A DNA stretch of 48,480 bases from an uncultured Bacilli bacterium (GTDB lineage: Bacteria; Bacillota_I; Bacilli_A; RF39; UBA660), in NCBI GenBank assembly GCA_947628685.1, contig CANRAT010000001.1:1-48480 (forward strand). The letters run 5' to 3'. Under the pieces are notes generated by a model, which was not told where the DNA came from, did not search any database, and saw nothing but the letters and a program-made list of their open reading frames with translations. Below are positions 5,562 through 43,505 of this stretch, in pieces. A program made the translations under genes and the position numbers. The stretch's first letter is position 1, and each line of letters starts with the position of its first letter.

Positions 5562-5591
5562 AAAAAAGAATAGAAAAATCTATTCTTTTTT
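5562..5591 (-). terminator. Rho-independent terminator after the pilin-FGE fusion gene
   Basis: Stem AAAAAAGAATAG (5562-5573) / CTATTCTTTTTT (5580-5591) with a 6-nt loop. U-run on the minus-strand transcript. Confidence 0.6.
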
Positions 5592-12379: not shown

Positions 12380-12405
12380 ATACGTCACTATCCTTAAATT
12401 TCTAA

Positions 12406-14955: not shown

Positions 14956-14959
14956 TATA

Positions 14960-15938: not shown

Positions 15939-15946
15939 TATACCAC

Positions 15947-17257
15947 CTATCTATTATAGACATATTCACCTGTATGGAATAATGCCCACTCTGCATTACG
16001 TCTTCTTGTTAATCCTCTTTCAAATTTAGTTCCTTTTGATACTGCTCTAAAGAACCAATTATCATAAAATTCTTGAGTGTTTCCATATTTTTGATAATTT
16101 TCTACAAATCCTTTTATGTTTCCTATATTATAACTTTGAGATATTAATGATTGTATTTGACGTTCAGACAAAGTTATTGAATTTTTAGACATAGTATTTT
16201 CTATAGAACTTCTTTTTGAATCTAGAACTTCTAATTCAATATTATCTACAATCCATATAGGTATAACACTACCTGCAGGATAGTCATTTACATCTATTCC
16301 ATATGATAAAAAACTTTTTACATTATTTTCAAGCGTTATTCCAGCTCCAGCAGTCCTAACACCATCACCGCCATCTACAACGAGATAATTATCATCTATT
16401 ATTTTTGTATGACCTTCCCAACTATTTAACCAAGATAATAAATCTGCATTTTCTTCACTTATTGGTTCGTGTTCCTCATCTATTATGTCATCTATATCTC
16501 CTGTATATCCAGAATATACAACACGTGGAGAAGTTGAAGATATATAATTTAATGGATCTACTGCACTAGAAGATGCGTTACTACCTTCTCTTACTTCGAA
16601 GTGTAGATGAGCACCTGTAGAATTACCACTACTACCCATCTTACCTATAACTTGTCCTTGTTCTACACTATCACCATATTTAACAGTAATTGAATTTTCA
16701 TACATATGACCATATAGTGTATAATTACCATCACTGTGCTGAATAATTACATAATTCCCATATCCACCACCACAAGATGAAAGTGAACTTCCAGATGGAC
16801 AATTATTAGAAACGCCTTCAGTTGGATATACAACTATACCACCACGTGCGGCAATAATATTAACACTATTAAGTCCACTACCTCCTGATATATCAAGTCC
16901 AGAATGGAATAATTCACCACGATTAAATGGATCTTCTCTATATCCAAATTGTGATGAAATATTTACTGTCTCTGGAGAGCCTTTAGCAAATAATTTGCCA
17001 TCTACTTCTACTGTTTCAGCACTTCCAATTGGCCACCAATATGCACTTTTAGTAGCATCATTTATAGTTAATTCATCTTCTATATATCCTCCTGCTAGAT
17101 CATCATATTGTTCTTTAGCATCATATATTTGATTTATCATATCTATTACATTGTCTTCATTATCAGGATCAATATATTCATATGCTCTAACTACACCTAA
17201 AAAAGGGTAAAATAATGTTAACAATAGAAAAATAACTACCGAACTTTTTTTTAACAT
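15947..17257 (-). CDS. Secreted bifunctional cell-wall hydrolase: M23 metallopeptidase plus lysozyme-like (GH24-type) domain
   Basis: Signal peptide. M23 motifs HSGLDI, IIQHSDGNYTLYGHM and GSSGNSTGAHLHFEV. The C-terminal lysozyme-like region has WEGHT...DGGDGVRTAGAGITL...QSYNIG...RRRNAEWALF. GGGAGGTGA RBS. Confidence 0.85.
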   Translation of the reverse strand: MLKKSSVVIFLLLTLFYPFLGVVRAYEYIDPDNEDNVIDMINQIYDAKEQYDDLAGGYIEDELTINDATKSAYWWPIGSAETVEVDGKLFAKGSPETVNISSQFGYREDPFNRGELFHSGLDISGGSGLNSVNIIAARGGIVVYPTEGVSNNCPSGSSLSSCGGGYGNYVIIQHSDGNYTLYGHMYENSITVKYGDSVEQGQVIGKMGSSGNSTGAHLHFEVREGSNASSSAVDPLNYISSTSPRVVYSGYTGDIDDIIDEEHEPISEENADLLSWLNSWEGHTKIIDDNYLVVDGGDGVRTAGAGITLENNVKSFLSYGIDVNDYPAGSVIPIWIVDNIELEVLDSKRSSIENTMSKNSITLSERQIQSLISQSYNIGNIKGFVENYQKYGNTQEFYDNWFFRAVSKGTKFERGLTRRRNAEWALFHTGEYVYNR

Positions 17258-17271
17258 TATTTCACCTCCCT

Positions 17272-17919
17272 TTAAAAATCATTTTTTGACATAACTTTTT
17301 TATATACTAAATAAGAAATAAATATTACTACTACAATTAATATAACAATAATTACATATTGAATAGGATTTTTTGTTGTAACATTGCTATCATAAGATAT
17401 TTCAATTTGTTTATTACCATTTTTAGTGATATTCCAAATATATTTATCACCGTCTACTTCCTCAGCATTTGTTGAAATAACCTTATGATTAGTTTTAAAA
17501 ACTACTCTAACACTTTCTAAATTATCATAAAATTCATAACATTCAAAATTAGAACCTGTATTTATTGTTATTATTCCATCATTATTTTCAATTTTAGGAT
17601 TGTTGTAGCACTGATTTAATATTGAAGAATTAATTATTGAAGATGCAGCTTTAGATGTATACTCTACACCCAATCTTTCATCATTAGTTAAAGATTTAAC
17701 ATTATAATTTTCTTGTCCAAATTCATCACTATCAAGTAAAGAGTTAAAACTATCTCTTACAGTCCAACCTGTATCAGTTGTTTTATCAAATATGGTCTTA
17801 TTTGTTTCTATAAGAGTTAATTTTTCACTAATTTTATTATTTTTTATCGTTATTTCATAATTTGCTGTACAACCTGATAAAAATAGACAAGCAATAATTA
17901 ATAGTAATATTTTCTTCAT
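17272..17919 (-). CDS. Lipoprotein with a C-terminal TM anchor (T4SS-associated)
   Basis: Lipobox LFLSG/C at residues 13-17. C-terminal hydrophobic helix IQYVIIVILIVVVIFISYLVY. Confidence 0.7.
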   Translation of the reverse strand: MKKILLLIIACLFLSGCTANYEITIKNNKISEKLTLIETNKTIFDKTTDTGWTVRDSFNSLLDSDEFGQENYNVKSLTNDERLGVEYTSKAASSIINSSILNQCYNNPKIENNDGIITINTGSNFECYEFYDNLESVRVVFKTNHKVISTNAEEVDGDKYIWNITKNGNKQIEISYDSNVTTKNPIQYVIIVILIVVVIFISYLVYKKVMSKNDF

Positions 17920-17926
17920 TTAATCA

Positions 17927-19927
17927 CTAATCCTTTTTTACATAAATATGTGCTTTATATACTTTATAATTAGAATATAAATTTAAATCTGTAACTCTAG
18001 CTGGATCCATAATGTATATATCATTATTAGTAGATATATAATCAAGAGCAACATAATGGTGTACTGAATTCCTATCTAATTTTGAAACTGCCAAAACTAT
18101 GTAATATTTTGAAGCATCATAACTTGATAATTTTTTAGCAATACTTTCTTTATTCATACCGGCTAAATTAATAGCAGTATAATATTCAAAGTTGGGCGCT
18201 AAATTTGTTGTACTTCTCCAAACAAAGTTTCCACCATTTACGAATTTATAGTATTTAAGTGCCACTCCAGGATCTATTGGAGATTCTACTGTAATAGTGC
18301 CACTTCTTGCTATTTGCATTGTAACAGAAGTAATTAAACAACCTATACTACACATTGTTGACTTACTACTAGGTACAGTCATATTGCTCCAAGTTCCGCC
18401 ACATTGTTTCCAATCTTTATAATATCCTGATGCGGGTGTTGCTGGAGTAGTGGTTCCACTATCCTCATTACCGCCTTCATCATCATTATCATCATTATTA
18501 TCGTTATTACTGTTATCATTATCTGTATTATTATCGTTATTTTCTTTATCGTTATTATTATTTGAAATATTTTCGTTATTAACATAATATTTTTTTTCAA
18601 TAAATTCTTTTAAGTATTCTCTATATTTATTATCATCAAACTTGTAGCACTTCCCATCCGATGCAAGTTCTATAGGTCTACAATAACTTGCATCCATTAC
18701 TGAAACCATATGTTGCGCTAAAACTTCCATGTCATGAGTACTATCATTAAATTTTGGAGTATAATTTGACCAATCGTAATAGTAGTCATATTCATCCGGT
18801 ATTGGTCTTTTATATGCAAGTCTATCTAATTGTTCTAAGTTAGAACTAAATACAATACCAATATCATCTGATTGCATAGTTAAAGTAGCCATCAAAAGAG
18901 GTAAATTTAAGTCTACATTATATCTAGTCTTATATTCATTGCTTAATCTATACATTTTAAAGAAGAAATCGTATATTAAACTCTCATCTTCAACACCATT
19001 TATACCAACTAAATTAGGATAAAAATCCTCTAAAGTTTCTAAATCCGCTTCATTATATTTACCATTAACATATTTATTTGCTACTGTAACTATATTAGAA
19101 TCTCTTAATTTACTGTTTCTAAATTTAACTACGTAGTGTTCTTGAAGAGTTAAAATTGCTACATCATCACTATCTTCATCAGTTATTTCTTCATCTAAAT
19201 CACTATCATCATCTTCCGCATCTTCTAACTTCTTATCAATTTTACTTGATTCTTTACTATCAGAAAGTTTATCGGCATCCCCAAATCCAATTGCTTTATA
19301 ATATATTTGAGATGCAGACATAAACAAATTAATGAATATAACCACAACAAATATAGGTATAGAAGCAATTAAAGATATTTTTATAAATTTGAATGAAACT
19401 TTTAAATTTTGACCATCTCCAATAGATGCCTGTTCTTGGGCTTCATTTCTTTGATCGTTTTGATTTTCAAAGAGTCCTGCTCCTAATCCAACTCCTAGAC
19501 CTCCACCTAAATTTCCAAATAATCCATTTTGTTTAGATGTTTGTCCTTCTTCCATAGAACTTGAACTATTATGCATTATTCCTCCACCTAGTGCGCTAAG
19601 ACCTTTAGGTTTAAGTCTATTTATAAAACTTTTATTATTTTTTCGACTAGGTTGGTTTAAATTTCTATTTTTTAAAAGATTATTGTTCTTTTGAGAATTA
19701 ATAGGTTGTGTATTACCAGTGGCATCATAATGTGGCATATTAGGATATCTTTGCTTTTTTATATCTTTTAATTTTTCCTCTAATTTATCATTATCATAAA
19801 GACTATTATAATGATCCATTCCTATAGCTTCAGAAATTTTTCTTAATCTATCAGCTTGGCTTTCAGAAGTTCCAGAATCTATTCCCAACTCACGAGCTAA
19901 ATCTTCTATTTTATCTGTTTGATGCAC
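17927..19927 (-). CDS. Bitopic T4SS protein with a C-terminal papain-fold (peptidase C39-like) domain
   Basis: Cytoplasmic N-terminus with a Gly-rich stretch, one TM helix, an acidic linker and an Asn/Asp-rich low-complexity tract. The C-terminal domain has Cys (STMCSIGCLITSVTM), His (HHYVALDY) and Asp (IMDPA), resembling the Peptidase_C39_2 pattern. The preferred start is the GTG at 19927, 8 nt after AGGAGG. Confidence 0.7.
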   Translation of the reverse strand: MHQTDKIEDLARELGIDSGTSESQADRLRKISEAIGMDHYNSLYDNDKLEEKLKDIKKQRYPNMPHYDATGNTQPINSQKNNNLLKNRNLNQPSRKNNKSFINRLKPKGLSALGGGIMHNSSSSMEEGQTSKQNGLFGNLGGGLGVGLGAGLFENQNDQRNEAQEQASIGDGQNLKVSFKFIKISLIASIPIFVVVIFINLFMSASQIYYKAIGFGDADKLSDSKESSKIDKKLEDAEDDDSDLDEEITDEDSDDVAILTLQEHYVVKFRNSKLRDSNIVTVANKYVNGKYNEADLETLEDFYPNLVGINGVEDESLIYDFFFKMYRLSNEYKTRYNVDLNLPLLMATLTMQSDDIGIVFSSNLEQLDRLAYKRPIPDEYDYYYDWSNYTPKFNDSTHDMEVLAQHMVSVMDASYCRPIELASDGKCYKFDDNKYREYLKEFIEKKYYVNNENISNNNNDKENNDNNTDNDNSNNDNNDDNDDEGGNEDSGTTTPATPASGYYKDWKQCGGTWSNMTVPSSKSTMCSIGCLITSVTMQIARSGTITVESPIDPGVALKYYKFVNGGNFVWRSTTNLAPNFEYYTAINLAGMNKESIAKKLSSYDASKYYIVLAVSKLDRNSVHHYVALDYISTNNDIYIMDPARVTDLNLYSNYKVYKAHIYVKKD

Positions 19928-19945
19928 TAATAACACCTCCTATTT

Positions 19946-25115: not shown

Positions 25116-25124
25116 ATTATAACA
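25116..25124 (-). promoter_or_regulatory. Extended -10 promoter element upstream of the VirB6-like gene
   Basis: Minus strand reads TGtTATAAT (hexamer at 25121-25116) directly after the upstream terminator U-run, about 45 nt upstream of the ATG. Confidence 0.4.
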
Positions 25125-25157
25125 AAAAAAACACAATTAATCAATAATTAAATGTGT
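25124..25157 (-). terminator. Weak rho-independent terminator after VirB2-like gene 25170-25556
   Basis: Imperfect stem ACACA-TTAA (25131-25140) / TTAA-TGTGT (25148-25157) with one A.A mismatch, followed by TTTTTTTT on the minus strand. Confidence 0.45.
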
Positions 25158-25169
25158 CTTATTTATTAT

Positions 25170-25556
25170 TTATTCAACATCTACTGCTACACAAGAATTA
25201 TCAGCAACAGTTCCATTTACAAAGCAGTTAAAACATTGAACAATTGAAGGCTCATTTCCTGCCAAGAATCTAACCAATATTTGAACAACTTGAATTACGA
25301 AGAACACAATTACAGCTGAAATAGCACGTTTAATAAATAATTGTTGTCCTTTTTTGATTTCGTCTTCTTTTGATGCAACAACCGCTTTTCCTAAATCAAG
25401 CATTCCGAATATTATAAGTAATATAGGTACCGCAATTTTTATTATCAATATAATTGTAGATACTATATAAGGAAAATTACCTGCAAATTGAAAATTGCTG
25501 CTTCCACAAGTATATATATCCTCTGAACTTGCCACTACCTTTGCCGCTAAAAACAT
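25170..25556 (-). CDS. VirB2/TrbC-like pilin paralog 3 (probably the most highly expressed)
   Basis: Two-TM hairpin with the conserved loop ASKEDEIKKGQQLFIKR and the C-terminal motif CFNCFVNG...C. It has its own exact consensus promoter, a GAGGAGGA RBS and a terminator. Confidence 0.7.
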   Translation of the reverse strand: MFLAAKVVASSEDIYTCGSSNFQFAGNFPYIVSTIILIIKIAVPILLIIFGMLDLGKAVVASKEDEIKKGQQLFIKRAISAVIVFFVIQVVQILVRFLAGNEPSIVQCFNCFVNGTVADNSCVAVDVE

Positions 25557-25580
25557 CTTTATTCCTCCTCAACTAATATA

Positions 25581-25609
25581 ATTATATATTGTTTTATATC
25601 AAATGTCAA
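25581..25609 (-). promoter_or_regulatory. Exact consensus sigma-A promoter (TTGACA-17-TATAAT)
   Basis: Minus strand, checked base by base: TTGACA (25609-25604), 17 nt, TATAAT (25586-25581). A GAGGAGGA RBS and the ATG at 25556 follow. Confidence 0.75.
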
Positions 25610-25615
25610 TATAAT

Positions 25616-26731
25616 TTACTTTAATATGTATGGATTATTTTGAGTGCCTTTTCCTTCTTGATATAATTCGTTTCCATCAATATATATAACTAAATTATAT
25701 TCATTATACGTATTTGCATTATCATGGGCAATTAATCCATTAGACATATAATATACCTCATATGAGTTGTTACTTACAGCATTCATAGTCCAAGTTGAAG
25801 ATGCAACATGGTGTAGATAATTATAATTTCTACAAGATTTAGAATTTGCATCCTTACAATCTGGATCAGTACTTGCCATAGCGTAATCTGAAACATTAAT
25901 TAAAGATATTACTTGTTTTTCTAAAATTTCACTACAGTCTAATTCTTTATTTATGCTATAGTCACCAATATTTCTTTTACCAACGCAAGAATCATAAGCA
26001 ACTACATGCTTTTTAGCGCTCTTGCTGATTTTTTTAGAATTCTTATACTCACTTATTAAACTTTCTAAAATATCACTATCTTTGTATATATTTTTCCCAT
26101 AAGACGCACTAGCATCTGAATTAAATTTATTATCCCATATTTTAAATGTACCTTCAGTACTTTCTTTTACAAGTTTAATAATATTATTTTCATCTATACT
26201 CATAATTCTATAATTGTTACCAAAAAATGTTATATAATTATTTACTTTATCGCCTTTAAAAATATATTCATCGTTAATTTTATAAAGGCCAGAACCTTCA
26301 GTTACTACATCTTCTAAAAGTTTATCTACCAAATGAGTTGTACTATATTCAGAACATTTTAAATTAACTGTATAATTTAAAAATCCACCATTATTTGTTT
26401 CTATTGAAGAACCATTTCTTCTAACATCAACACTACCATTGCAAGTAGAATCACCAAGTAATTTTTCAGTAGATTTTATATACTTCCCATCTACTAAAGT
26501 AGACAAACTAATAGTAACTAATTCTGCTTCATTACTTGGAGCACCGCCTTCTTTAGTTAAATACTTTTCAGCAGCACTAACCAATTTTTCTTCATATTTA
26601 TCATATGTAATTTTTTTTACGCCGCAAGACTGCATAATTACTAAAAATATAATGACAAAAAGTGGGATTAAAATAATAGATCCCGCTATAATTAAGAATT
26701 TTTTATCTAATTTTTTCAATGCATCTGTCAT
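25616..26731 (-). CDS. Membrane-anchored pilin-like/lectin-like protein embedded among the VirB2-like genes
   Basis: N-terminal TM anchor without a G-FTLxE site. The following segment (YEEKLVSAAEKYL...LVTISLSTLVDGKYI) parallels the pilin head start of 5591-7327. The C-terminus (SDYAMAS...STWTMNAV...NLVIYI) resembles the DUF6273-like domain of 11303-12379. Confidence 0.55.
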   Translation of the reverse strand: MTDALKKLDKKFLIIAGSIILIPLFVIIFLVIMQSCGVKKITYDKYEEKLVSAAEKYLTKEGGAPSNEAELVTISLSTLVDGKYIKSTEKLLGDSTCNGSVDVRRNGSSIETNNGGFLNYTVNLKCSEYSTTHLVDKLLEDVVTEGSGLYKINDEYIFKGDKVNNYITFFGNNYRIMSIDENNIIKLVKESTEGTFKIWDNKFNSDASASYGKNIYKDSDILESLISEYKNSKKISKSAKKHVVAYDSCVGKRNIGDYSINKELDCSEILEKQVISLINVSDYAMASTDPDCKDANSKSCRNYNYLHHVASSTWTMNAVSNNSYEVYYMSNGLIAHDNANTYNEYNLVIYIDGNELYQEGKGTQNNPYILK

Positions 26732-26739
26732 AAATACAC

Positions 26740-27165
26740 CTACTTATTACATTCTCCACTTGTTGAATCTGCACCATTTATAAAACAATTCGCACATTCC
26801 ATAATAGTATTATTGTCTGCAACAACACTTACTAACAATTGTACTATTGATGTTACAAAGAACACAAGTGCAGCCGCTATAAGTCTTTTAATAAACATCT
26901 GTTGCCCTTTTTTAATTTCATCCTCTTTTTGTGCAGTTATACCTTTAAATAAATCAAGCATTCCAAATATAACTAACAAAACAGGAACTGCTATTTTTAT
27001 TACTGTAATTATAGTATGAATAATATTTGCAATTTTCACATCTATATCTATACTTCCCATTCCAGAAATTTCTGTGCAACCTGTAATATTAACAGCGCTA
27101 ACCAATGTTGGTGTGCCTACTATTAAAAGTGCAACTAAAACTATTAAAAATATTTTTTTCTTCAT
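26740..27165 (-). CDS. VirB2/TrbC-like pilin paralog 2
   Basis: Signal peptide (…TLVSA/VN), a two-TM hairpin, the conserved loop AQKEDEIKKGQQMFIKR, and the C-terminal motif CANCFING...C. AGGAGGTAAGG RBS. Confidence 0.7.
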   Translation of the reverse strand: MKKKIFLIVLVALLIVGTPTLVSAVNITGCTEISGMGSIDIDVKIANIIHTIITVIKIAVPVLLVIFGMLDLFKGITAQKEDEIKKGQQMFIKRLIAAALVFFVTSIVQLLVSVVADNNTIMECANCFINGADSTSGECNK

Positions 27166-27196
27166 AAATCCTTACCTCCTATATTTTAATAATTTA

Positions 27197-27658
27197 TTAA
27201 CTATTGCCATGTACCTTTTCTGGATCTATTGCATTACCATCTGGGTCATAGCCATAACTGATCTTACAATCACCACTTATAAAACAGTCTATACAACTAA
27301 CTATATTATCTTTTTCTTCATTTGAATCTGCAACTAAACTTATCAAAAACTTAGATAAAACTATTACGAAAAATATTATCGCACCAACAATAAGTCTTTT
27401 AATAAACATTTGCTGTCCTTTTTTTATATCATCCTCTTTTTGAGCAACCACACCTTTTACTAGATCTATTGTACCCATTATAACTAATATTATGGGAACC
27501 AATATTTCAATAAATGTAACTATCAAACTTGTAATTTGGGGTATTTTATCTGGAATTTCAGCAATACCACCACATTGTACCTTTGTTGTTGCATTAACGC
27601 TCATTATTGGTATAAATAAAGCAATAGTAAGAATTACAATCCATTTTCTTTTCTTCAT
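27197..27658 (-). CDS. VirB2/TrbC-like pilin paralog 1
   Basis: Signal peptide (…MSVNA/TT), a two-TM hairpin, the conserved loop AQKEDDIKKGQQMFIKR, and the C-terminal motif CIDCFISGDC. Confidence 0.7.
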   Translation of the reverse strand: MKKRKWIVILTIALFIPIMSVNATTKVQCGGIAEIPDKIPQITSLIVTFIEILVPIILVIMGTIDLVKGVVAQKEDDIKKGQQMFIKRLIVGAIIFFVIVLSKFLISLVADSNEEKDNIVSCIDCFISGDCKISYGYDPDGNAIDPEKVHGNS

Positions 27659-27693
27659 TGTTCACCTCAATAAATCAGTAAATCCCTAAAATT

Positions 27694-27722
27694 ATTATAC
27701 ATTTTTGAAAAAACTATGTCAA
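27694..27722 (-). promoter_or_regulatory. Exact consensus sigma-A promoter (TTGACA-17-TATAAT) for the VirB2-like operon
   Basis: Minus strand: TTGACA (27722-27717), 17 nt, TATAAT (27699-27694). It sits in the 82-bp gap between the TadZ-like gene and the first VirB2-like gene. Confidence 0.75.
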
Positions 27723-27740
27723 CAAATATTTAATAATTTA

Positions 27741-28748
27741 TTAAATTTCTGATTTTAATTTATTAAATCCAAGTTTAACTAACAATTTATCAAGTTCAGG
27801 CAATTTCTTTTCTCTTTCATTTAATGGAGCAAGATTATAAAAGACTTTCATCCTAGCCTCATATTCAAAATTAGCTACTTGACTTGGCGTAAGTAAACTT
27901 TGATTTAAAACTACTTTTTTATCTTTTAATCCTTGTATACTTGCCGCACTTAGCATCATAAGTTTTTGAAGTTTAATGATAGATGGCTCTATTAAATAAA
28001 GTACCTCTTGACAAAATCCTTCAGCAACTAAACTATTATTTATATCAACTAAAATAACATCTTTGTCTTTATATTTGTTAATAATACTTCCAACTTCACC
28101 TGTTATAGTTGAAATTAAATCTTTATCTCTAAAATAATTAAAATCAGTTTTATCTACTTCGATTGCAATAACATTATAGTGTTTAGTAAGTTCCTTTTTC
28201 ATCATATATACTAAACTACTCGCACCAGACTGCTTTGTTACATTTTTTACTCCAATTATTCTTGTTCCATAAAATTCATTATTTGTAACTTCATTTATTG
28301 AATTAGAATTAATTACAGGAGTTATAAACTGTACAGGCTGGGGTGCTTGATTTTGTGAATTTTGAACTGTTAACTGATGAAATTTAGCAACATCACGGTA
28401 AGTATTAGGAGTATTATATAAATACTGAATTCCTTCTACATTTTTAGTAAAATTATATATGCCCATAGATACTAAATTAGATAAAAAGCTTGGATTACTA
28501 GTTTTTTCAGTACCATCTAACAAAAGAATAATTTTATCTGTATCTAATGACATTGATATTTTTTGTAAGTTAACAATATCTGTATAATTTTTAATTGCCG
28601 TTATATCAAGTATCATTCTTTGAAAAAAGAAATTTTGGAAAGTTGAAATAATTTCATCAGCATCAAATTCCCCATTCATTTCTTTTATTACGTCTATTCC
28701 CAAATTTTCAAGCATCATTTGATTTTTATTTGAAATAATTACATTCAT
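27741..28748 (-). CDS. TadZ/CpaE-like protein (pseudo-receiver plus ParA/MinD-like domain with a degenerate P-loop)
   Basis: The N-terminal ~110 aa is receiver-like. The C-terminal domain starts IIGVKNVTKQSGASSLVYMM where MinD/ParA proteins have GxKGGVGKTT. It lies next to Tad genes. Confidence 0.55.
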   Translation of the reverse strand: MNVIISNKNQMMLENLGIDVIKEMNGEFDADEIISTFQNFFFQRMILDITAIKNYTDIVNLQKISMSLDTDKIILLLDGTEKTSNPSFLSNLVSMGIYNFTKNVEGIQYLYNTPNTYRDVAKFHQLTVQNSQNQAPQPVQFITPVINSNSINEVTNNEFYGTRIIGVKNVTKQSGASSLVYMMKKELTKHYNVIAIEVDKTDFNYFRDKDLISTITGEVGSIINKYKDKDVILVDINNSLVAEGFCQEVLYLIEPSIIKLQKLMMLSAASIQGLKDKKVVLNQSLLTPSQVANFEYEARMKVFYNLAPLNEREKKLPELDKLLVKLGFNKLKSEI

Positions 28749-28762
28749 ATTTTATCCCCTTT

Positions 28763-29245
28763 TTAATAACTATAATCCTTACCCATTATTTTAGTCTCAC
28801 CGTATATAGGCATATTTATGATATCACCAATAATAGGAAAGTTGAAATGAACAAAAGTAACTACTACATAATATTTAGATTCATCACTTCCTGTAATAGA
28901 ATTAGTCCTTCCCTCTACTTCAAAAACGCAATAATTATAACCTCTCGTATTATCATTAACGTTTTTTGGAGAATATATTCCTATTTCTCTTAAATGTTTT
29001 TTTACTTTATTACTATTGCAAAAATCTTTTGTTGAAACAGTATATCCAGCTTCACTTAAACTCTCAGTTACTTCATGTGAGGCAGCAGAATTATATTCAC
29101 CATATTTTTCTATTATATCAATAATTCTATTTTTTACTCTATACGCTTTTGAATAGGAAATAATACCTATAAATACAAGTATTATTATTGCAGAAAATAC
29201 AAGAACTATATTTAATAATAAAGCACTTCCTATTGATTCTCTCAT
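28763..29245 (-). CDS. TadE/TadF-like minor pilin candidate
   Basis: N-terminus MRESIG-SALLLNIVLVFSAIIILVF (short charged leader, Gly, hydrophobic helix). Paralogous to 29250-29708. Confidence 0.55.
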   Translation of the reverse strand: MRESIGSALLLNIVLVFSAIIILVFIGIISYSKAYRVKNRIIDIIEKYGEYNSAASHEVTESLSEAGYTVSTKDFCNSNKVKKHLREIGIYSPKNVNDNTRGYNYCVFEVEGRTNSITGSDESKYYVVVTFVHFNFPIIGDIINMPIYGETKIMGKDYSY

Positions 29246-29249
29246 TTAA

Positions 29250-29708
29250 TCACCCACCACATGCACTTTGATCTTCAAAGTTATATAATCTATTAGTATT
29301 TGAATATATAGGTATTTCCAACAATCTATTTATAATTGGTACGTTTAATAACATATTTGTCTTTATTCTATAATAGTAATATACCTCACACTTATCATTA
29401 TTTCTTTGAATTTCATCACATAAATAAACACAATATCCATCATTACCGTGGTACTGAAGAGTACAACCACTAATATAACCACAGCTATTAAGTTTCTTTT
29501 TATTATATCCAATAGATTTTAATTTTTGAGTTATTTCACTTTTTGCATAACTATTATAACCTTCGTATTTTTCAATAGTTTCAGTAATAATATTGCTTAC
29601 CTTATTACTTTTAAAGTATACAAGAGTGGCTGCAAGAAATGCAAAAACTATTACTATAAATACAATTACGATGTTCAAAGTAACTGTATAGCCTACACTC
29701 TCTTTCAT
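29250..29708 (-). CDS. TadE/TadF-like minor pilin candidate
   Basis: N-terminus MKESVG-YTVTLNIVIVFIVIVFAF. Cys-rich ectodomain. AGGAGGTAGG RBS. Confidence 0.55.
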   Translation of the reverse strand: MKESVGYTVTLNIVIVFIVIVFAFLAATLVYFKSNKVSNIITETIEKYEGYNSYAKSEITQKLKSIGYNKKKLNSCGYISGCTLQYHGNDGYCVYLCDEIQRNNDKCEVYYYYRIKTNMLLNVPIINRLLEIPIYSNTNRLYNFEDQSACGG

Positions 29709-29789
29709 ATCCTACCTCCTATTATTACTAAATCAATTATACATTTAAAACATTGTTTTGTCAATGTAATTAAAAAATCTTTATTTTCT

Positions 29790-31274
29790 TTACACTCTTT
29801 TTAACAATGAAAAATATTTCTCTTCAAATATAACCTCAAAATTGTCGCTTATTAAGTATGAATAAACATCAGAATCCGTGTTAACGAGTGCATAATCAAA
29901 ATTATATTTATCAAAAACTTCTTTATATGTTGAATATTCCTTAGTTTTCAAAAAATCACTAATTATATCATATCCACCATTAAATTCTTTAATATATACT
30001 TCAGCACGTGAATCTAAAAATACAGGAATATCATTAAACTCTATATATGAACCAAATCCAAAAATGTTGTATAATCTTATATTTTTATAATCTAAATTTT
30101 GTTTTATGTACTCTACGCATTCATCAGGGTAATCTTCTTTAATATTATAGTCGTTCCTCTTAAAATCCATACAAAATAATAAATATATATAAATTAATAT
30201 TAAACAAACAGTAGTAAAAATTGTTATAACTTTAGTATTAACACTACTAAATATTTTGGTCAATTTTTTAAATTTTATTTTTAAATCAAGTGATTCAAAT
30301 ACTGTTTTAATAAGTATTGTAGGATAAAATAAATATACAAATACAACATTCCTTTCTGCTACGAATGAAAAAAGCATAAGCCCTATTAAAAGGCTCAAAT
30401 CTCTTAATTTAAATTTAACATTTTTAATAAAGAATGTTAAAATAAACATAACTAAAAGAAATATTAGAAATTTATTAACATATAATACTGTTTTAGACAT
30501 TTCACCAATAAATGTAAAAGTATGATTAAATAATGATCTAGTAAAAAATGTATATGGATATAATTTTAATGGGGTTAATAATCCTGTAAATAAAAGTATC
30601 ACAAATGTAATAATTAAAAGTTTAGTATTTATAGGATAACTTATAATTAACTTATCACTTATTATGTTATTCATTTTTGGGAATTTTTCTAACATTTTTT
30701 TTATAACTAATTCAAATATAAATGGTAAATAGAAAACTAGAGTTAAAATCCATATAGGCATATGCATATTGGCAATTAGAATTGATATCAAAATAATAAA
30801 TATAGAATACTTTTTTTCACCTTTTTCATATAATCTATTAAGAAAATAAATTTCTAAAAAGAATAGTATATATGTTATCGATTGAACTCTTGTTTGAAAT
30901 GCATAACCAGTTATATATAAAGTAAAAAGAGAAACCAAAAGAGAAACAAATCTACTTTTAGTAAATTTATTATTTATATAATAAACTAAAATTCCAAATG
31001 AATTAAATATAATTAAGAAAAATATAAAAAGTCCATGAAATTTAAACAATGTATATATTGGATAAATTATTAAATCATATAAATAATGATGATAAATATA
31101 AGTTAAATTGGGTATAAAACTAAAATGATCTTTAAAATCTATTCCATATTTTAAAATGCTTTCTGCTGTTTTCAAATCAAAAAATATGTCATTTTCAAAA
31201 TTTTTTCTAATAATTGATATAGAAAATATCATAATAATTAGTATATTTATAATTGTAATTAATCTTTTCTTCAT
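29790..31274 (-). CDS. Polytopic GT-C-like membrane protein (putative glycosyltransferase/oligosaccharyltransferase-like)
   Basis: About 12 TM helices followed by a soluble C-terminal domain of about 110 aa, an architecture like ArnT/PMT/PglL-type GT-C enzymes. No catalytic motif was verified. The preferred start is MKKRLITI at 31274 (GGTGA 5 nt upstream). Confidence 0.45.
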   Translation of the reverse strand: MKKRLITIINILIIMIFSISIIRKNFENDIFFDLKTAESILKYGIDFKDHFSFIPNLTYIYHHYLYDLIIYPIYTLFKFHGLFIFFLIIFNSFGILVYYINNKFTKSRFVSLLVSLFTLYITGYAFQTRVQSITYILFFLEIYFLNRLYEKGEKKYSIFIILISILIANMHMPIWILTLVFYLPFIFELVIKKMLEKFPKMNNIISDKLIISYPINTKLLIITFVILLFTGLLTPLKLYPYTFFTRSLFNHTFTFIGEMSKTVLYVNKFLIFLLVMFILTFFIKNVKFKLRDLSLLIGLMLFSFVAERNVVFVYLFYPTILIKTVFESLDLKIKFKKLTKIFSSVNTKVITIFTTVCLILIYIYLLFCMDFKRNDYNIKEDYPDECVEYIKQNLDYKNIRLYNIFGFGSYIEFNDIPVFLDSRAEVYIKEFNGGYDIISDFLKTKEYSTYKEVFDKYNFDYALVNTDSDVYSYLISDNFEVIFEEKYFSLLKRV

Positions 31275-31390
31275 TATGTTCACCATGTTAATTTTACCAT
31301 GCATACTTTAAGATGTAAATTAGTATTTTAAATACTATCCTGATTCTTAAATTATTATTAGAGAAAATATGTTTTCAAAAAATTTTTTTT

Positions 31391-31417
31391 AATAAAAAAA
31401 TAGGTAAAAACCTATTT
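31391..31417 (-). terminator. Rho-independent terminator directly after the Flp-like pilin gene
   Basis: Stem AAATAGG (31398-31404) / CCTATTT (31411-31417) with a 6-nt loop, followed by TTTTTTTATT on the minus strand. It overlaps the TAA stop. Confidence 0.55.
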
Positions 31418-31646
31418 AGCTATTAATATTATTTGACTTACAAGCGTCATAGTTAATTGTAGTTGTTCCTGTGTCACCTGCATAGCAACCACCATTTCTC
31501 CAAACACCACCACACGCTGAACAAGCACTACTATTATTTGTATTACTCATCATCTGTCTAACGATTATTGTACCTACTGCAAGAACTATTGCTATTAATA
31601 CTATTGTTATTACTGTCATATTTGCCTCTCCTGCTGCTTCTTTCAT
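31416..31646 (-). CDS. Flp-like (type IVb/Tad) major pilin candidate
   Basis: 76 aa. MKEAAG-EANMTVITIVLIAIVLAVGTIIV is followed by a short Cys-rich tail with 4 Cys. It lies immediately downstream of tadC with its own strong promoter, an AGGTGA RBS and a terminator. Confidence 0.65.
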   Translation of the reverse strand: MKEAAGEANMTVITIVLIAIVLAVGTIIVRQMMSNTNNSSACSACGGVWRNGGCYAGDTGTTTINYDACKSNNINS

Positions 31647-31675
31647 CGAATCACCTACTTTCCTTCTACACTCTT

Positions 31676-31705
31676 ATTATACCACATATTAATTTTATAT
31701 TTCAA
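31676..31705 (-). promoter_or_regulatory. Strong promoter for the Flp-like pilin gene
   Basis: Minus strand: TTGAAA (31705-31700), 18 nt, TGgTATAAT (extended -10, hexamer at 31681-31676). Confidence 0.65.
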
Positions 31706-31721
31706 TATATTTTTTGTTTTT

Positions 31722-32513
31722 TTAAATTCCCATCATAACTGTCATTGACATAAATAATACTAGAAGAACTCCACCACCAGTTACGAATAACATTATCATG
31801 GTTCTTTTTTCCATTCCTTCAAGTCTTTCTTTGTACTTTATATCACGAGCCTTATTTTGGAGTGATGAAACTGTTTTTGAAAAGGCCATTATCTGTTCGT
31901 GTTTATCTTGACTTGATCCAAGTCCTAAACGATATAAAAGTCTCATCATTCTCATAGAATCTCTAACAGGATATTCATTTGCAAAATCAATATAAGGTTG
32001 TATTGTTGAATCACCTTCATCTATTTTTGCTATTAAAGTTCTAAGTCCAGGTTTAAATATTTCAGGAGCAGTATCCACACTTCTTGAAAGAGCAACTGGA
32101 ACTGTATAGTGTTGTACAAGAATTTCCAAACTTTTTAAATAATATGGAAGCATTGATTCTATATAGTGTAATCTTGCTTTATAATATTTTTTTAAATTAG
32201 TGTATCCACTTTTAAATACTAAGAATCCTGCAACGAATGCTAAAAGTATAAACATATAATTAGCATATCCTGTAACAAATAACAAGAATATTATTACTGC
32301 AGTTGCAATTATACCATTTCTTATTCTTCCATAAAATAATGAATTAATATCTAAATCTTTATCGCCATATTTAACCCTAAGTAAAAATACATAGTCCTTT
32401 TCCATTAGTTTTTTTACAATAGGGCTTATCTGTCCTAAAATTGCTTTTGGTTTAATTATGTTATTAACAATAAATATAAGGACTACTGCAACAGCTACTA
32501 TTACAAATCTCAT
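31722..32513 (-). CDS. tadC: TadC-like platform protein (T2SS-F domain)
   Basis: 263 aa with N-terminal and C-terminal TM helices flanking a cytoplasmic T2SSF-like helical domain. The start overlaps the tadB-like stop (ATGA). Confidence 0.7.
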   Translation of the reverse strand: MRFVIVAVAVVLIFIVNNIIKPKAILGQISPIVKKLMEKDYVFLLRVKYGDKDLDINSLFYGRIRNGIIATAVIIFLLFVTGYANYMFILLAFVAGFLVFKSGYTNLKKYYKARLHYIESMLPYYLKSLEILVQHYTVPVALSRSVDTAPEIFKPGLRTLIAKIDEGDSTIQPYIDFANEYPVRDSMRMMRLLYRLGLGSSQDKHEQIMAFSKTVSSLQNKARDIKYKERLEGMEKRTMIMLFVTGGGVLLVLFMSMTVMMGI

Positions 32514-33415
32514 TATTCAGCCCCCACATTCTCATTATAATATTTTGTACCAGATAATAGGAAATATGTATTAAATAGTACAATAATGTGTAACATAAGT
32601 CTAACATACCAAAGATTGAGCATTGTATGATATGTATCACCAAGCATTATTTGTACTAAACCTATCATAAGATATAATATTAAACCAAATCTTAAAAACT
32701 TCTTATAAAAGTTTTGTCTATCAATTCTATCTCTATAAACATTTTCAACAAGTACGTCTATATCAAGTGACATATTTTCAAGAGACTCACTCGCATCTTT
32801 TGAACCTTCATTAGTTATTTGAAGGAATAATTGATGCATGTTTTTTACCATGTAGAAATCATATTTTTCGTTCATATATTCAAGCGACTGATTAATTGTT
32901 CCATTTTCATATGCCATATCAATCATTACTTTAACATCAGATTTTACAGGATCTTCAAGTACACCAGAAGCATAAACTCCTTCAAGTGATTTAACAAAGC
33001 TTTGTGTAGTATTAAACTCCATTATAACGTTTGTAGTATAAACTTGTACTTGTTCAAAAATAAATTCACTATATAATCTTTTACATCTCAAATAATTTAT
33101 ATATGGTACTGCACTAACTGCAAGAATAGCATAAATTATTGAAACAACTAAATTATAAAAGTATAAATATGTTATTATTCCTCCACCTAAAGCAAACAAT
33201 ATTACCTGTCCAATATATTGTTGAATAGTATAGTCTTGATTTAATTCTTTTATTTTTTTCTTAATTTCTTTATATGTGTAAGGAGCAACTTTACTATATA
33301 GCCTTTTTGTATTAGTATTTAAAAATTGATAGGCTTGATCTCCCATGCCACTTCTATATACTATAATAAATATAATTAACAAAGCAACAATGAAGAAAAG
33401 TAAAGCTATATTCAT
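32513..33415 (-). CDS. tadB: TadB-like platform protein (T2SS-F domain)
   Basis: 300 aa with the same TM / helical domain / TM architecture. It follows tadA directly. AGGAGGGG RBS. Confidence 0.7.
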   Translation of the reverse strand: MNIALLFFIVALLIIFIIVYRSGMGDQAYQFLNTNTKRLYSKVAPYTYKEIKKKIKELNQDYTIQQYIGQVILFALGGGIITYLYFYNLVVSIIYAILAVSAVPYINYLRCKRLYSEFIFEQVQVYTTNVIMEFNTTQSFVKSLEGVYASGVLEDPVKSDVKVMIDMAYENGTINQSLEYMNEKYDFYMVKNMHQLFLQITNEGSKDASESLENMSLDIDVLVENVYRDRIDRQNFYKKFLRFGLILYLMIGLVQIMLGDTYHTMLNLWYVRLMLHIIVLFNTYFLLSGTKYYNENVGAE

Positions 33416-33426
33416 ATTATCCCCTC

Positions 33427-34605
33427 CTATTCGAAAATTATTTCATTTTCTAATTTAGTAGTGTTATTATCACCAGTTAAATTAAAATTATTTTGTACAT
33501 TTTCTTGTTTAATAACATCTTGTTGTTCTTGATCTTCTTGTGCATTATATTCCTCTTTAATAAATCCTGTTGGAAGCGTCACTCCTTGAGTTTCCAAATA
33601 TTCTATCAAATATTTAGATGGATTTTTTCTATAAACCTTACCGTCTGGTGTCTTTTTATAAAGAGTATTATATTTTGCATCATTATCTTCTGTGACGTAG
33701 AATTCAGTAACTTCGGCAATCTCTCTTACAAAATTTTTAGTTACTTTATCTTGATAACCTCTTATATAGACTCCAAGTTGAATATATCTATAAATTGATT
33801 TTAAAAATTGCTCTATATCCTGATTAGTCTCAAGAAGACTATACATACGGTTTGGTATAGATGCTGCTTTATCAGCATGTATTGTAGACAAGATATAATG
33901 TCCTGATGAAATAGAGTTTCTAACTGCCATTACAGCTTCCGCGCTACGCACCTCGGACAAAAGTATCCATTTTGGATTCTGTCTCATACAAGTAACCAAA
34001 ACATCAGAATAACTGGCTATGTTATTTGTTTTCATAGCGACTATATCTCTATTTGGATATATCCTATCCAAGTGAAGTTCAAGTGTATCCTCAATTGTTA
34101 TCAATTTTTCGTTTTCATATGTATTTGCAGCCAAGAACTTAACGAACTCTGTTTTACCTGAGCCTGTCTCACCACAAACAATTATATTGCAATGTCCATG
34201 AACGCAAGTTATCAAAAAATCTAATATATCTTCAGTTATATATTTTTCTTTTAATATCTTATTTCTTTCCAAACGAATTTTAGCAGGTGTTTTACGAATA
34301 ACACATGCAATTCCGTTTCTAGCTATAGAATCGTGTACGAAATTCATACGCAATTCTGCACTTTCGCTATCTAGAAATGGATGGGCAGCATTAAAACTTT
34401 TCCCCATAACATTCGAACATTGAAAAGCCAATTTTTCCATAAAAGCATTATTAATTGCAGGATTTTCTATTCTAAAAATACCTTTTGATAATGTTTTTAA
34501 CCAAACTTGTCCATTATTACTATATGAAATATCGGTAATATCATCGTTATCTAAATATTCTTTTAGTGGACCAAAGTCCATTCCTTCGAATATATTATCA
34601 CTCAT
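33427..34605 (-). CDS. tadA: TadA/CpaF-family secretion ATPase (VirB11 superfamily)
   Basis: Walker A GETGSGKTEF, Asp box ITIEDTLEL, Walker B WILLSEVRS and His box LSTIHA. 392 aa. Confidence 0.88.
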   Translation of the reverse strand: MSDNIFEGMDFGPLKEYLDNDDITDISYSNNGQVWLKTLSKGIFRIENPAINNAFMEKLAFQCSNVMGKSFNAAHPFLDSESAELRMNFVHDSIARNGIACVIRKTPAKIRLERNKILKEKYITEDILDFLITCVHGHCNIIVCGETGSGKTEFVKFLAANTYENEKLITIEDTLELHLDRIYPNRDIVAMKTNNIASYSDVLVTCMRQNPKWILLSEVRSAEAVMAVRNSISSGHYILSTIHADKAASIPNRMYSLLETNQDIEQFLKSIYRYIQLGVYIRGYQDKVTKNFVREIAEVTEFYVTEDNDAKYNTLYKKTPDGKVYRKNPSKYLIEYLETQGVTLPTGFIKEEYNAQEDQEQQDVIKQENVQNNFNLTGDNNTTKLENEIIFE

Positions 34606-34606
34606 A

Positions 34607-35416
34607 TTACTCCACAGGTTGTTCTACATTTTCATCAGTAATAACGTCTTCCTCGATTGTAATAGATTGTGCATCTATATAATCTCTTAAAGTAGCACTT
34701 GTAACAATTACATAATTCTCTGTTGGCACTGTAGATCCTCTTGGAGCTAAAACAAGTTCAAGATTTAAATATTCTGCTTTTTTAAGTAACATATACATAT
34801 CTTGGTTTACTGCAAATCCTATTTTAGAAGGAGTTCCTATATTTAAAGAATCTTCAAATACATTCTTACCATTTCCATCATGTACAACTAATACTTTAAC
34901 ATTTTTCATAAGTTTACCAAATATTATTGTACCATTTTCATCTGTCGCTTTCATATATATATCTATATAAGAATTTGGTAAAACTGAATTACCTAATGTA
35001 CTAGTTATATTAACGCTCATATAAAATCCAAGTTCTCCTGATGCTCTATCTAGTTGTTCAATCCAGTTTCCTGGTATATTAGCGCCCTCTGCAAGCCATT
35101 CACTATAAAACATACTTCCTTCTGGAATTGTTACATTGTAATTTGTGTATTTATCAATTATCTGATTTGAATATCTAATCGCATTTTCACTTACCATGCT
35201 ACTTGCGACTTGTTGATAGACAATATCGTCTGCAGTTATTCTAGTTTGTGGATTTATTTTTCTTGAAGCAACCGGCATACTTACTGGATTAGTTTTTTGT
35301 TTTATACTTCCACTATATCCAAAATAAAGTACGACTAGTATAACAATTACAAGTAATATTGTAACAACATTTTTATTAGTAATAAATCTTTTAAACCCTA
35401 TCAATATATTATTCAT
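34607..35416 (-). CDS. cpaB: CpaB/RcpC-like Flp pilus assembly protein (SAF domain)
   Basis: N-terminal TM helix, then VSMPVASRKINPQTRITADDIVYQQV, typical of the SAF-domain start of CpaB. It lies immediately upstream of tadA. Confidence 0.65.
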   Translation of the reverse strand: MNNILIGFKRFITNKNVVTILLVIVILVVLYFGYSGSIKQKTNPVSMPVASRKINPQTRITADDIVYQQVASSMVSENAIRYSNQIIDKYTNYNVTIPEGSMFYSEWLAEGANIPGNWIEQLDRASGELGFYMSVNITSTLGNSVLPNSYIDIYMKATDENGTIIFGKLMKNVKVLVVHDGNGKNVFEDSLNIGTPSKIGFAVNQDMYMLLKKAEYLNLELVLAPRGSTVPTENYVIVTSATLRDYIDAQSITIEEDVITDENVEQPVE

Positions 35417-35431
35417 CTTTTTATTCTCCTC

Positions 35432-35848
35432 TCAATATGTAGTTTCTATTATCTCATCGATATTATTTACAATATCAAATTCAAAAGTATCATTTTCCTT
35501 ATTAGGTAACAAGAAATTTTGAGATTTTACACTAGATACTCTCATGCTTACCTTAGGTGGAACCTCATTTACATCATATATTTCAATTACATATGTATTA
35601 GATAAATCGGCATTTTCAGAAAATCTTCTAATAAAGTTTTCAACAAACTTTTCTTCCTCAATCCTTATTGTACTATCTTTTCTATATGCTGCTAAATCTA
35701 AAGAATCCTCCATGGCAGCTTCAACAGTTTCTCTTAATAAATTAAAATTGTGTTGATCCGTTCTTGTCACAGTTGCAAAGAACCAAATAATTCCAATGGC
35801 AAATAGTCCAAGTGCCATTATCGCATATCCCCACATTGACTCTTTCAA
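35432..35848 (-). CDS. Minor pilin-like protein sharing the MKES-x-G leader
   Basis: The ORF is open to a GTG at 35863. However, a TTG at 35848 sits 4 nt after AGGTGA and yields MKESMWG-YAIMALGLFAIGII, matching the leaders of three other cluster proteins. Confidence 0.55.
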   Translation of the reverse strand: MKESMWGYAIMALGLFAIGIIWFFATVTRTDQHNFNLLRETVEAAMEDSLDLAAYRKDSTIRIEEEKFVENFIRRFSENADLSNTYVIEIYDVNEVPPKVSMRVSSVKSQNFLLPNKENDTFEFDIVNNIDEIIETTY

Positions 35849-35996
35849 ATTATCACCTACCACCTTCTATTTTATAAATTTATTTTATCACATATTAATA
35901 TTTTAAACAATAGTTTTTTTATTTTTTTCACTAAATTTATATGAATAGTCACATTTAACTGATATTGTATGTTTATAATTTACACTTTTTTTACAA

Positions 35997-40747: not shown

Positions 40748-40853
40748 ATGCGTTCTCCTATCCTATTTTGATTATACAACATTTTTTTTAAAATTAAAAG
40801 TTTTTTTGTAAGTTATATTGAAAATAGTAAACAAAAAGTAAACGAAACTATTC

Positions 40854-43346: not shown

Positions 43347-43505
43347 ATTCGCTCTCCTATCCTATTTTGATTATACAACATTTTTTTAAAATTAAAAGTT
43401 TTTTATACTTTTCTTCATACATATCCTCCTACTATATTACATAACTTTTTTTAAAACTTAAATTTCTCTATAGATTATATTAAGTTAAAGTAGACAAAAC
43501 TAATT

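Follow-up and report, generated by a model that had tools for sequence, protein, structure and literature searches.

Three paralogous genes on the minus strand of a 48,480-nucleotide (nt) contig from an uncultured gut Bacilli bacterium (GenBank CANRAT010000001.1, positions 1 to 48,480; hereafter the window) encode small membrane proteins, and the question that this locus raises is what these proteins build. The genes form an array within a co-oriented supercluster of ~34 kb, between a Tad-like module upstream and a type IV secretion system (T4SS) module downstream. An earlier note on this DNA had read their products as VirB2-like pilins. We call the products P1, P2 and P3 (Table 1) and consider it probable, though well short of certain, that they are disulfide-stapled VirB2-class pilin or channel subunits of a domesticated, complete, monoderm-type chromosomal T4SS, in which P3 is the major subunit.

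The three open reading frames (ORFs) are as reported before, and their products do share a two-helix hairpin. Over their full alignment the proteins are 41-45% identical, BLASTP matches P3 with P1 at E 1e-22 and with P2 at E 2e-30, and a 197-nt core is present three times in the array at a DNA identity of 69-70%. P1 carries a C-terminal extension of 22 residues; P3, whose orthologs include P0135 and P0141, keeps the hairpin, loop and Cys pattern of the other two. The inter-helix loop reads (A/S)(Q/K)KED(E/D)IKKGQQ(M/L)FIKR in all three, and the near-invariance claimed for it holds in their alignment; as KGITAQKEDEIKKGQQMFIKR, it has six basic and three acidic residues and is net positive. In the AlphaFold2 model of P2, built from a 76-sequence alignment, the hairpin helices span residues 43-77 and 81-115 with block-mean predicted local distance difference test (pLDDT) values of 84-92, accompanied by a signal-peptide helix and by a short helix at 119-130 that bears the CxxC motif. 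These helices and the loop composition give the small protein with two transmembrane (TM) segments and a short charged loop that is one mark of the VirB2 class. Before assembly, both termini would lie outside and the loop in the cytoplasm, an orientation suggested by the signal peptides of P1 and P2, by the distribution of charge (acidic termini, basic loop), by the confinement of Cys to the termini and by the domains fused to relatives.

The family to which these proteins belong is large and unnamed. A 90%-clustered protein database gave 1,586 matches, none with a name or a precomputed Pfam domain; clusters at 50% identity gave 7,321 representatives at E <= 1e-3; and a scan of GTDB species representatives found 311 relatives. 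A tblastn search of the PLSDB plasmids with the pilin returned no match. We kept 74 loci from species-level gut metagenome-assembled genomes (MAGs), whose hosts are rabbit, human, mouse and ruminants and whose labels are Bacilli, Tenericutes or Erysipelotrichaceae; placing them in RF39/RFN20-type orders would be a guess. By tblastn of all window proteins, these loci share a single gene order: DUF5411, CpaB, ATPase, TadB-like, TadC-like, the 152-, 160- and 335-amino-acid (aa) genes, two to four pilins and a 371-aa gene, followed by a P3-type pilin, sometimes a further long pilin, then VirB6, VirB3, the two VirB4 ORFs (VirB4n, VirB4c) and the remainder. Four pilin genes are present in most complete loci and up to six in some; the window is without the first one. 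The array adjoins VirB6 in 65 of the 74 loci, and its place in a T4SS cluster by VirB6/VirB3/VirB4 is conserved in 60-65 of them and in the relative L080. The window paralogs recur in other genomes as stable orthologous types, including the leaderless type that begins 'MFLAAKV...'.

Elsewhere in the family, hairpin and loop are unchanged in proteins that have C-terminal fusions to GDSL-hydrolase, dockerin or Listeria-Bacteroides-repeat domains, and other members have Cys-rich N-terminal extensions of up to ~480 aa; P0159, P0166, P0191, P0155 and others of alignment A4 were noted for such extra domains or extensions. Large additions at both termini around a fixed hairpin and loop fit termini exposed on the surface of a fibre. 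As a separate observation, several contigs with this Bacilli-type locus (L006, L040, L044, L045, L058, L060, L062, L065 and L073) lie in MAGs labelled Bacteroidaceae, Muribaculaceae or Actinomycetes, where binning contamination is more likely than true presence in those phyla.

The Cys residues of these proteins follow a rule. Each paralog has exactly four (29/122/125/131 in P1, 30/124/127/139 in P2 and 17/108/111/122 in P3), in the 1+3 pattern described before: one in the N-terminal segment, within VQCGG (P1), TGCTE (P2) or YTCGS (P3), and three in the C-tail, as C-x2-C-F-(I/V)-(S/N)-G, then 1, 7 or 6 residues (P1, P2, P3), then the last Cys. The earlier note had feared that the cysteines might not be conserved in orthologs. 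They are: the CxxC cysteines are found in 150/150 and 145/150 cluster representatives (50% identity), where the loop is near-invariant as well. We then counted cysteines in 269 proteins (149 representatives and 120 close homologs) from which the signal peptide had been removed by a simple hydrophobicity heuristic. The mature N-terminal outer segment contains an odd number in 256 of the 269 (120/120 close homologs, 136/149 representatives), with observed counts of 1, 3, 5, 7, 9, 11, 13 and 21. Among representatives with at least two N-segment cysteines, 73 are odd and 7 even, tallied over combinations seen at least twice. The C-tail number is also odd (3, 5, 7 or 9) in 143/149 representatives and 120/120 close homologs, while the hairpin is without Cys in 259 of the 269. 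As a result, the total of extracytoplasmic cysteines is even in ~95% of the proteins, the conserved even total expected of a disulfide-bonded exported protein, although the counts themselves span 4 to >24.

If all outer cysteines are paired, an odd N-segment together with an odd C-tail leaves exactly one N-to-C disulfide, which could form within one subunit or between neighbours. A zinc site or another fixed four-ligand metal site is less likely, because the counts vary so widely while the odd-plus-odd parity holds. At this locus, the Cys content of exported proteins is 2-4%, compared with 0-1% for cytoplasmic ones. Together with the parity, this supports a covalent closure that does the job of cyclisation. 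The suggestion that a disulfide links the N- and C-terminal segments has thus gained real support, with the bond itself deduced from parity. Of the two cyclised pilins invoked as precedent, TrbC is indeed cyclic; for Agrobacterium VirB2 the claim is contested, since three cryo-electron microscopy structures of the T-pilus are without cyclisation (PMC12037004).

Both exact TTGACA-17-TATAAT promoters that had been reported near the array are present, and we found a third that is absent from the earlier note (Table 1). These three compare with 0.10 expected, and 0 of 100 shuffles of the window reached three; all are intergenic, on the coding strand and inside one supercluster. The 74 related loci (1.28 Mb) contain 48 exact consensus promoters on the system strand and 0 on the opposite strand. 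Of these, 31 sit just 5' of a P3-type gene. Among 48 full-array loci, the site ahead of that gene reaches 11/12 or better in 46, and the full 12/12 in 30. The ribosome-binding site (RBS) and terminator ascribed to P3 were likewise found, by direct reading and by fold energy. Because P3 has its own consensus promoter, the best RBS and a terminator, and is the shortest paralog and without added domains, it is probably the major, abundant subunit, with P1 and P2 minor or decorating. Of the heteromeric or switchable fibre imagined earlier, a mixed fibre remains plausible; switching is unsupported, as the surroundings of the array showed no invertible-promoter repeats, slippery tracts or other phase-variation signals beyond A+T-rich chance matches.

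Are these proteins VirB2-class pilins? The topology and the slot upstream of VirB6-VirB3-VirB4 fit this reading, and the only biologically sensible Pfam match is PF18895 (T4SS_pilin), aligned across TM1, loop and TM2. It matches P2 with 17.5 bits (E 0.0044, residues 45-111 against positions 5-71 of the 71-position profile) and P1 with 16.4 bits (E 0.0096). Family-wide, 27 of 43 members match at E <= 0.1 and 12 of 150 at E <= 1e-3, the best at E 9.5e-7. One member also matches DUF4134 (E 8.5e-4), which we take to be the Bacteroidetes TraE VirB2 analogue.

Several results weigh against such an assignment. P1 and P2 score under the PF18895 gathering threshold of 26.6 bits and P3 has no PF18895 match, so that the family would be at most a distant outlier of PF18895. 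The irrelevant family DUF621 matches the hydrophobic core in 18 of 150 members, compared with 12 of 150 for PF18895; since it matches about as often, the profile link alone could be compositional. No similarity to a solved pilin (TraA, VirB2, TrwL, TrbC, TrhA, CedA1) was detected: a profile search of PDB sequences gave 0 matches at E <= 10, and Foldseek of the pilin model against the PDB, a check proposed in the earlier note, returned chance helical matches and no pilin (best E 4), placing the proteins neither with VirB2/TraA nor with any other family. In our judgement this is weak negative evidence, because simple helical hairpins are expected to score poorly in Foldseek. Aligning the family alignment A2 with PrgF of pCF10 in hhalign gave a probability of 0.2 and E 0.28, with no similarity to the PrgF family. 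None of the 74 loci has one of the two modules, Tad-like or T4SS, without the other, and the array lies exactly at their junction; such invariable co-occurrence cannot assign the array to one module. Finally, we saw no thiol oxidase among the window genes, and the hosts are presumably gut anaerobes. A search of NCBIfam with the pilins gave only noise (MamI, PgaC) and a marginal match to MMCAP2_0566 (E 0.075) on which we do not rely. Taken together, it is likely that these proteins work like VirB2-class subunits, as their hairpin, loop and gene position indicate, without being demonstrated members of PF18895.

We propose the following scheme. P1 and P2 would enter the membrane through Sec with cleavable signal peptides, and P3, with its short acidic N-tail, would insert without one. 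All three would adopt the predicted two-TM hairpin, with ends outside and the basic loop KEDEIKKGQQxFIKR in the cytoplasm. The Cys before TM1 would bond one of the three C-tail cysteines and the remaining two would bond each other, covalently closing the open end of the hairpin as backbone cyclisation does in TrbC and TrhA. The split VirB4 would then pull subunits from the membrane for polymerisation on a VirB6 platform, giving a tube through the cell wall whose lumen is lined by the invariant loops, as in conjugative pili and in the PrgF model. P3 would be the abundant major subunit, and P1, P2 and the domain-fused relatives found elsewhere minor or decorating ones. The adjacent Tad-like pilus would probably supply cell-cell contact, and the machine would probably serve a host function, for example exchange with neighbouring cells.

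The strongest competing explanation, which we consider unlikely but deserving of weight, is that the proteins do not polymerise: they would be integral T4SS membrane parts, or anchors displaying ectodomains, with a loop that contacts a cytoplasmic ATPase and no long fibre. In many relatives the hairpin does carry a large ectodomain (GDSL hydrolase, dockerin or repeats), as expected of an anchor, solved pilins gave no structural or sequence match, and a conjugative pilus on a Gram-positive cell has yet to be seen by microscopy (bioRxiv 10.64898/2025.12.18.695078). However, a dedicated exact-consensus promoter, strong RBS and terminator on the smallest, domain-free paralog suggest a very abundant structural subunit. 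Arrays of three to six paralogs also resemble the pilin arrays of Patescibacteria (PMC12102498), and the slot matches that of PrgF, whose lumen-labelling data support a tube (bioRxiv 10.64898/2025.12.18.695078).

Less likely again is an array that belongs to the Tad-like pilus rather than to the T4SS, its products serving for instance as platform accessories or anchors for the Flp-like fibre. The array directly follows the Tad-associated genes for 335, 160 and 152 aa, the Flp-like pilin has a four-Cys tail too, and the constant pairing of the two modules means that linkage cannot discriminate. What counts against this possibility is that P3 lies immediately upstream of VirB6 in the window and in relatives, and that the sensible profile matches are confined to PF18895 and DUF4134, taken as T4SS pilin families; we also know of no described Tad system with two-TM hairpin subunits of this type. 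It is very improbable that some unrelated kind of small membrane protein (such as a holin, a bacteriocin immunity protein or a leader-less toxin) happens to be encoded here and that the Pfam matches are compositional noise, as sub-threshold scores, equally frequent matches to irrelevant hydrophobic families and an uninformative Foldseek search might suggest, because the genes hold a fixed position inside the supercluster in 74 species-level genomes, the invariant loop is found in 7,321 clusters (50% identity), the pilin has no plasmid match, and the window is without lysis, bacteriocin or phage genes nearby.

Table 1. Coordinates of the array, its signals and the neighbouring genes in the window.
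Feature	Position	Strand	Remarks
Paralog 1 (P1)	27197..27658	-	153 aa; Sec-type signal peptide (MKKRKW...VNA), outer Cys29, two-TM hairpin, C122-x2-C125...C131
Paralog 2 (P2)	26740..27165	-	141 aa; signal peptide (...LVSA), Cys30, hairpin, CxxC helix, Cys139
Paralog 3 (P3)	25170..25556	-	128 aa; without classical signal peptide, short N-tail MFLAAKVVASSEDIYTC
Exact TTGACA-17-TATAAT promoter	27694..27722	-	ahead of P1, P2 and 371-aa gene
Exact TTGACA-17-TATAAT promoter	25581..25609	-	ahead of P3
Exact TTGACA-17-TATAAT promoter (third)	29736..29764	-	ahead of 152-, 160- and 335-aa genes of Tad-like module
Ribosome-binding site GAGGAGGA	25563..25570	-	6 bases before P3 ATG; read directly
Intrinsic terminator after P3	25119..25169	-	A+T-rich hairpin, then U8; -16.3 kcal/mol, z = -5.2
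Promoter-like site, TTGATT-17-TATAAT with TG extension, 10/12	25116..25144	-	ahead of VirB6 operon; overlaps terminator tail
Conserved non-pilin gene, 371 aa	25616..26731	-	N-terminal membrane anchor or possible lipoprotein signal
Extended VirB6-like, 827 aa	22585..25068	-	TrbL_4; mycoplasma-ICE Mbov_0396 and MMCAP2_0566 families (2e-10, 2e-8)
PrgI/VirB3-like, 106 aa	22247..22567	-	
VirB4 N-terminal ORF, 199 aa	21730..22329	-	
VirB4 ATPase ORF, 594 aa	19946..21730	-	best family mycoplasma-ICE VirB4, 2e-102, below cutoff
Rest of T4SS	12910..19936	-	669-aa membrane protein, 215-aa lipoprotein, M23/lysozyme hydrolase, two small bitopic proteins, VirD4
669-aa membrane protein	17927..19936	-	
Rhodanese, single-domain, 95 aa	12565..12852	-	directly after VirD4 gene
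Tad-like module	27741..35863	-	335-aa protein, two small proteins, Flp-like pilin, two polytopic proteins, VirB11/TadA-type ATPase, CpaB-like, DUF5411
Flp-like pilin, 76 aa	31416..31646	-	near-invariant N-terminus MKEAAGEANMTVITIVLIAIVLAVG, four-Cys tail
Promoter-like site, 11/12 with TG extension	31676..31705	-	precedes Flp-like pilin ORF
504-aa polytopic protein	29790..31304	-	
Large protein with prepilin N-methylation motif	11303..12388	-	
Large protein with prepilin N-methylation motif	5591..7327	-	
Three SpaA-type surface proteins	38261..46064	-	828, 830 and 852 aa

Between P2 and P3 stands the 371-aa gene, which holds the same position in 52 of the 74 loci. Its product has six invariant extracellular cysteines, and an invariant Cys36 ends its N-terminal hydrophobic segment and could be a lipoprotein site. 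The AlphaFold2 model is good (pLDDT 85.9, predicted template modelling score 0.81), and its best match among PDB folds was no better than E 0.5; a VirB5-like tip or a type IV pilin fold was considered for it and set aside. In BLASTP, its similarity to the two pilin-like window proteins with an N_methyl motif (27% over 125 aa, E 1.7) is a lead and not a result.

The genes downstream of the array complete a T4SS of monoderm type. The VirB3 and VirB4 ORFs, of 106, 199 and 594 aa, jointly cover a single VirB4 model from the integrative and conjugative elements (ICEs) of mycoplasmas. The VirB4 split recurs in 60 of 60 related loci and is therefore a real gene arrangement, not decay into a pseudogene. 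Plasmid VirB4 proteins reach only ~29% identity with the window VirB4. The VirD4 coupling protein scores above the NCBIfam CD1115 cutoff. By eye, the two small bitopic proteins are possible VirB8 analogues. The 669-aa protein starts with a cytoplasmic part, crosses the membrane once and ends in a region where, again by eye, we see a papain-like (C39 or NlpC/P60-type) peptidase motif, QCGG...C..GC...HHYV; it has no Pfam match and may be a second wall hydrolase. The position of the rhodanese is kept in a related contig; whether this enzyme is linked to the sulfur or thiol chemistry of the Cys-rich exported proteins is a matter for speculation only.

In the Tad-like module, two small proteins look TadE-like by eye. 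The Flp-like pilin is conserved in 60 related loci and duplicated in some. The 504-aa polytopic protein, which has no family match and occurs at this position in 4 of the 74 loci, looks like an accessory insertion within the module.

In the window, genes for SmpB, RNase R, RmuC and FtsW border the supercluster on one side and those for ScpA/ScpB on the other. A relative whose coupling protein is 85% identical shows the same flank (rhodanese, RmuC, DUF2238, RNase R, PGA_cap, SmpB), and ScpAB adjoins the cluster in several related loci. Coupling protein identity is 79-90% among the 120 best-scoring clusters listed. Among the window ORFs of at least 100 aa, none showed a relaxase, integrase or replication (Rep) domain. 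Downstream of VirD4 in relatives, where a relaxase was sought, one longer contig showed housekeeping genes instead, and a first set of loci ended at VirD4. A conjugative ICE or plasmid would be expected to have a relaxase and integrase or replication genes linked to its T4SS and to vary in chromosomal location; the housekeeping flanks of this locus are conserved in relatives. From its gene content and neighbours, the system appears to be vertically inherited and chromosomal, not an ICE. Without relaxase or integrase and at a conserved chromosomal site, the machine probably serves a host function and not the spread of a mobile element.

Further genes lie toward the two ends of the window. The two large proteins with a prepilin N-methylation motif, one of which also has DUF6273, sit with FtsW and a histidine kinase in an insertion of ~8 kb between rhodanese and RmuC, and one relative is without this insertion. 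We recognised no prepilin peptidase among the window genes. Three large paralogous surface proteins with SpaA-type prealbumin-fold domains and 21-24 Cys each are encoded where the supercluster has its upstream end. Two of the three carry type I dockerin modules, and no cohesin partner for these was seen in the window.

To the known T4SSs the locus adds an unnamed family of great size, present in 74 or more species-level gut genomes. Its members are easier to recognise than PrgF, owing to the invariant loop, the clear signature and promoters that keep the exact consensus. It also yields predictions: one N-C disulfide per subunit, one major subunit accompanied by minor ones, and exposed termini able to carry enzymes. 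Our findings suggest that, in a prevalent group of uncultured gut Bacilli, cell-cell interaction depends on a domesticated T4SS physically joined to a Tad-like pilus, a dependence that could guide cultivation (by co-culture) and the interpretation of metagenomes. A bolder proposal, possible but doubtful at present, is that the whole supercluster is a vertically inherited, relaxase-less core organelle of this lineage, comparable to the T4SS of Patescibacteria, whose mixed stapled pilus, with GDSL or dockerin domains on some subunits, serves attachment to neighbouring bacteria and exchange of material with them. If so, disulfide stapling would be a second, convergent answer to pilin cyclisation, and the machine would hint at a contact-dependent, possibly epibiotic lifestyle of a common gut lineage. 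T4SS specialists would find three points worth pursuing: the Cys parity, the pilins with fused domains and the union of Tad and T4SS genes in one supercluster.

How does this locus compare with known systems? In descriptions up to 2023-2025, monoderm T4SSs have no VirB2 pilins; Patescibacteria and then PrgF-type proteins on Gram-positive plasmids changed this view. The earlier remark that VirB2-type pilins would be unusual in a Gram-positive T4SS has been overtaken by the Patescibacteria arrays (PMC12102498, PMC12857230) and by PrgF (bioRxiv 10.64898/2025.12.18.695078); because these have been described, the premise is already overturned, and VirB2 in a monoderm is no longer new.

Patescibacteria (candidate phyla radiation, CPR) have MPF_FATA-related chromosomal T4SSs, mostly relaxase-less (PMC12102498, PMC12857230). 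In the accounts of their arrays, for example those of Ca. Southlakia epibionticum and TM7x (Wang 2023 as cited in PMC12857230; PMC12102498), the likeness to the window extends to a VirB2-like pilin array, a monoderm host, an MPF_FATA-related T4SS (VirB1, B3, B4, B6, B8, D4) and a chromosomal location, usually without a relaxase and with a type IV-class pilus alongside. The CPR arrays were detected with PF18895 and PF04956. They come from another phylum than the gut Bacilli of the window, and the two sets of pilins were compared by description. Window-type paralogs are 41-62% identical with an invariant loop, whereas the CPR-array average is 25%; the odd-plus-odd Cys rule and the fusion with a Tad module in one supercluster are window-type features that we did not find described for CPR in those accounts.

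A December 2025 preprint describes PrgF of the Enterococcus faecalis plasmid pCF10 as an essential VirB2-like protein (B2), with analogues near virB6 in 95% of 174 Gram-positive plasmid classes and, according to its authors, almost no sequence homology among them (bioRxiv 10.64898/2025.12.18.695078). PrgF is proposed to polymerise on a VirB6 pentamer with its loop lining the lumen (bioRxiv 10.64898/2025.12.18.695078). Like the window proteins, it is a small two-TM protein with a short charged loop, encoded just 5' of VirB6-VirB3-VirB4, and the window order pilin-VirB6-VirB3-VirB4-hydrolase-VirD4 mirrors prgF-prgG-prgH-prgI-prgJ-prgK...pcfC of pCF10. Unlike them, PrgF has 75 aa, is single-copy, has no signal peptide or Cys and almost no exposed termini, is plasmid-borne and works with a relaxase.

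In TrbC (RP4) and TrhA (R27), both cyclic, the termini of a hairpin pilin are joined covalently on the outer face, as the disulfide would do in the window proteins; closure of TrhA is essential for pilus biogenesis (PMC12037004). There, however, a dedicated peptidase first cleaves the C-terminus and a backbone peptide bond then forms the link, and the hosts are diderm. The window link would be a side-chain disulfide that leaves the termini free for extra domains.

The Bartonella Trw T4SS, as summarised in PMC12857230, likewise has tandem amplified, sequence-variable pilin genes and a role beyond pure conjugation, with multiple VirB2 and VirB5 copies. It belongs to a diderm, has no coupling protein, and its variation is thought to serve host-cell binding; the window paralog types are stable orthologous groups across species and not copies of recent origin and fast evolution. 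Mycoplasma ICEs provide the best NCBIfam families for the window VirB4 (Mbov_0397) and VirB6, and both hosts are of class Bacilli. The scores are nevertheless below the family cutoffs, VirB3/VirB4 is one polypeptide there and three ORFs in the window, and the mycoplasma elements are mobile, whereas the window locus is chromosomally fixed and without a recombinase. The archaeal Ced/Ted DNA import systems, which work with type IV (Ups) pili, share a VirB2/VirB6/VirB4-like apparatus, a host function and a separate pilus of type IV class (as summarised in PMC12102498 and PMC12857230); they differ in being archaeal and in having different ATPases, and the window VirB4 is only a weak match to CedD. 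What is distinct here is the combination of a gut Bacilli host, a large signature-loop family, Cys parity, domain-fused variants, a conserved split VirB4 and a fixed-site union with a Tad-like module.

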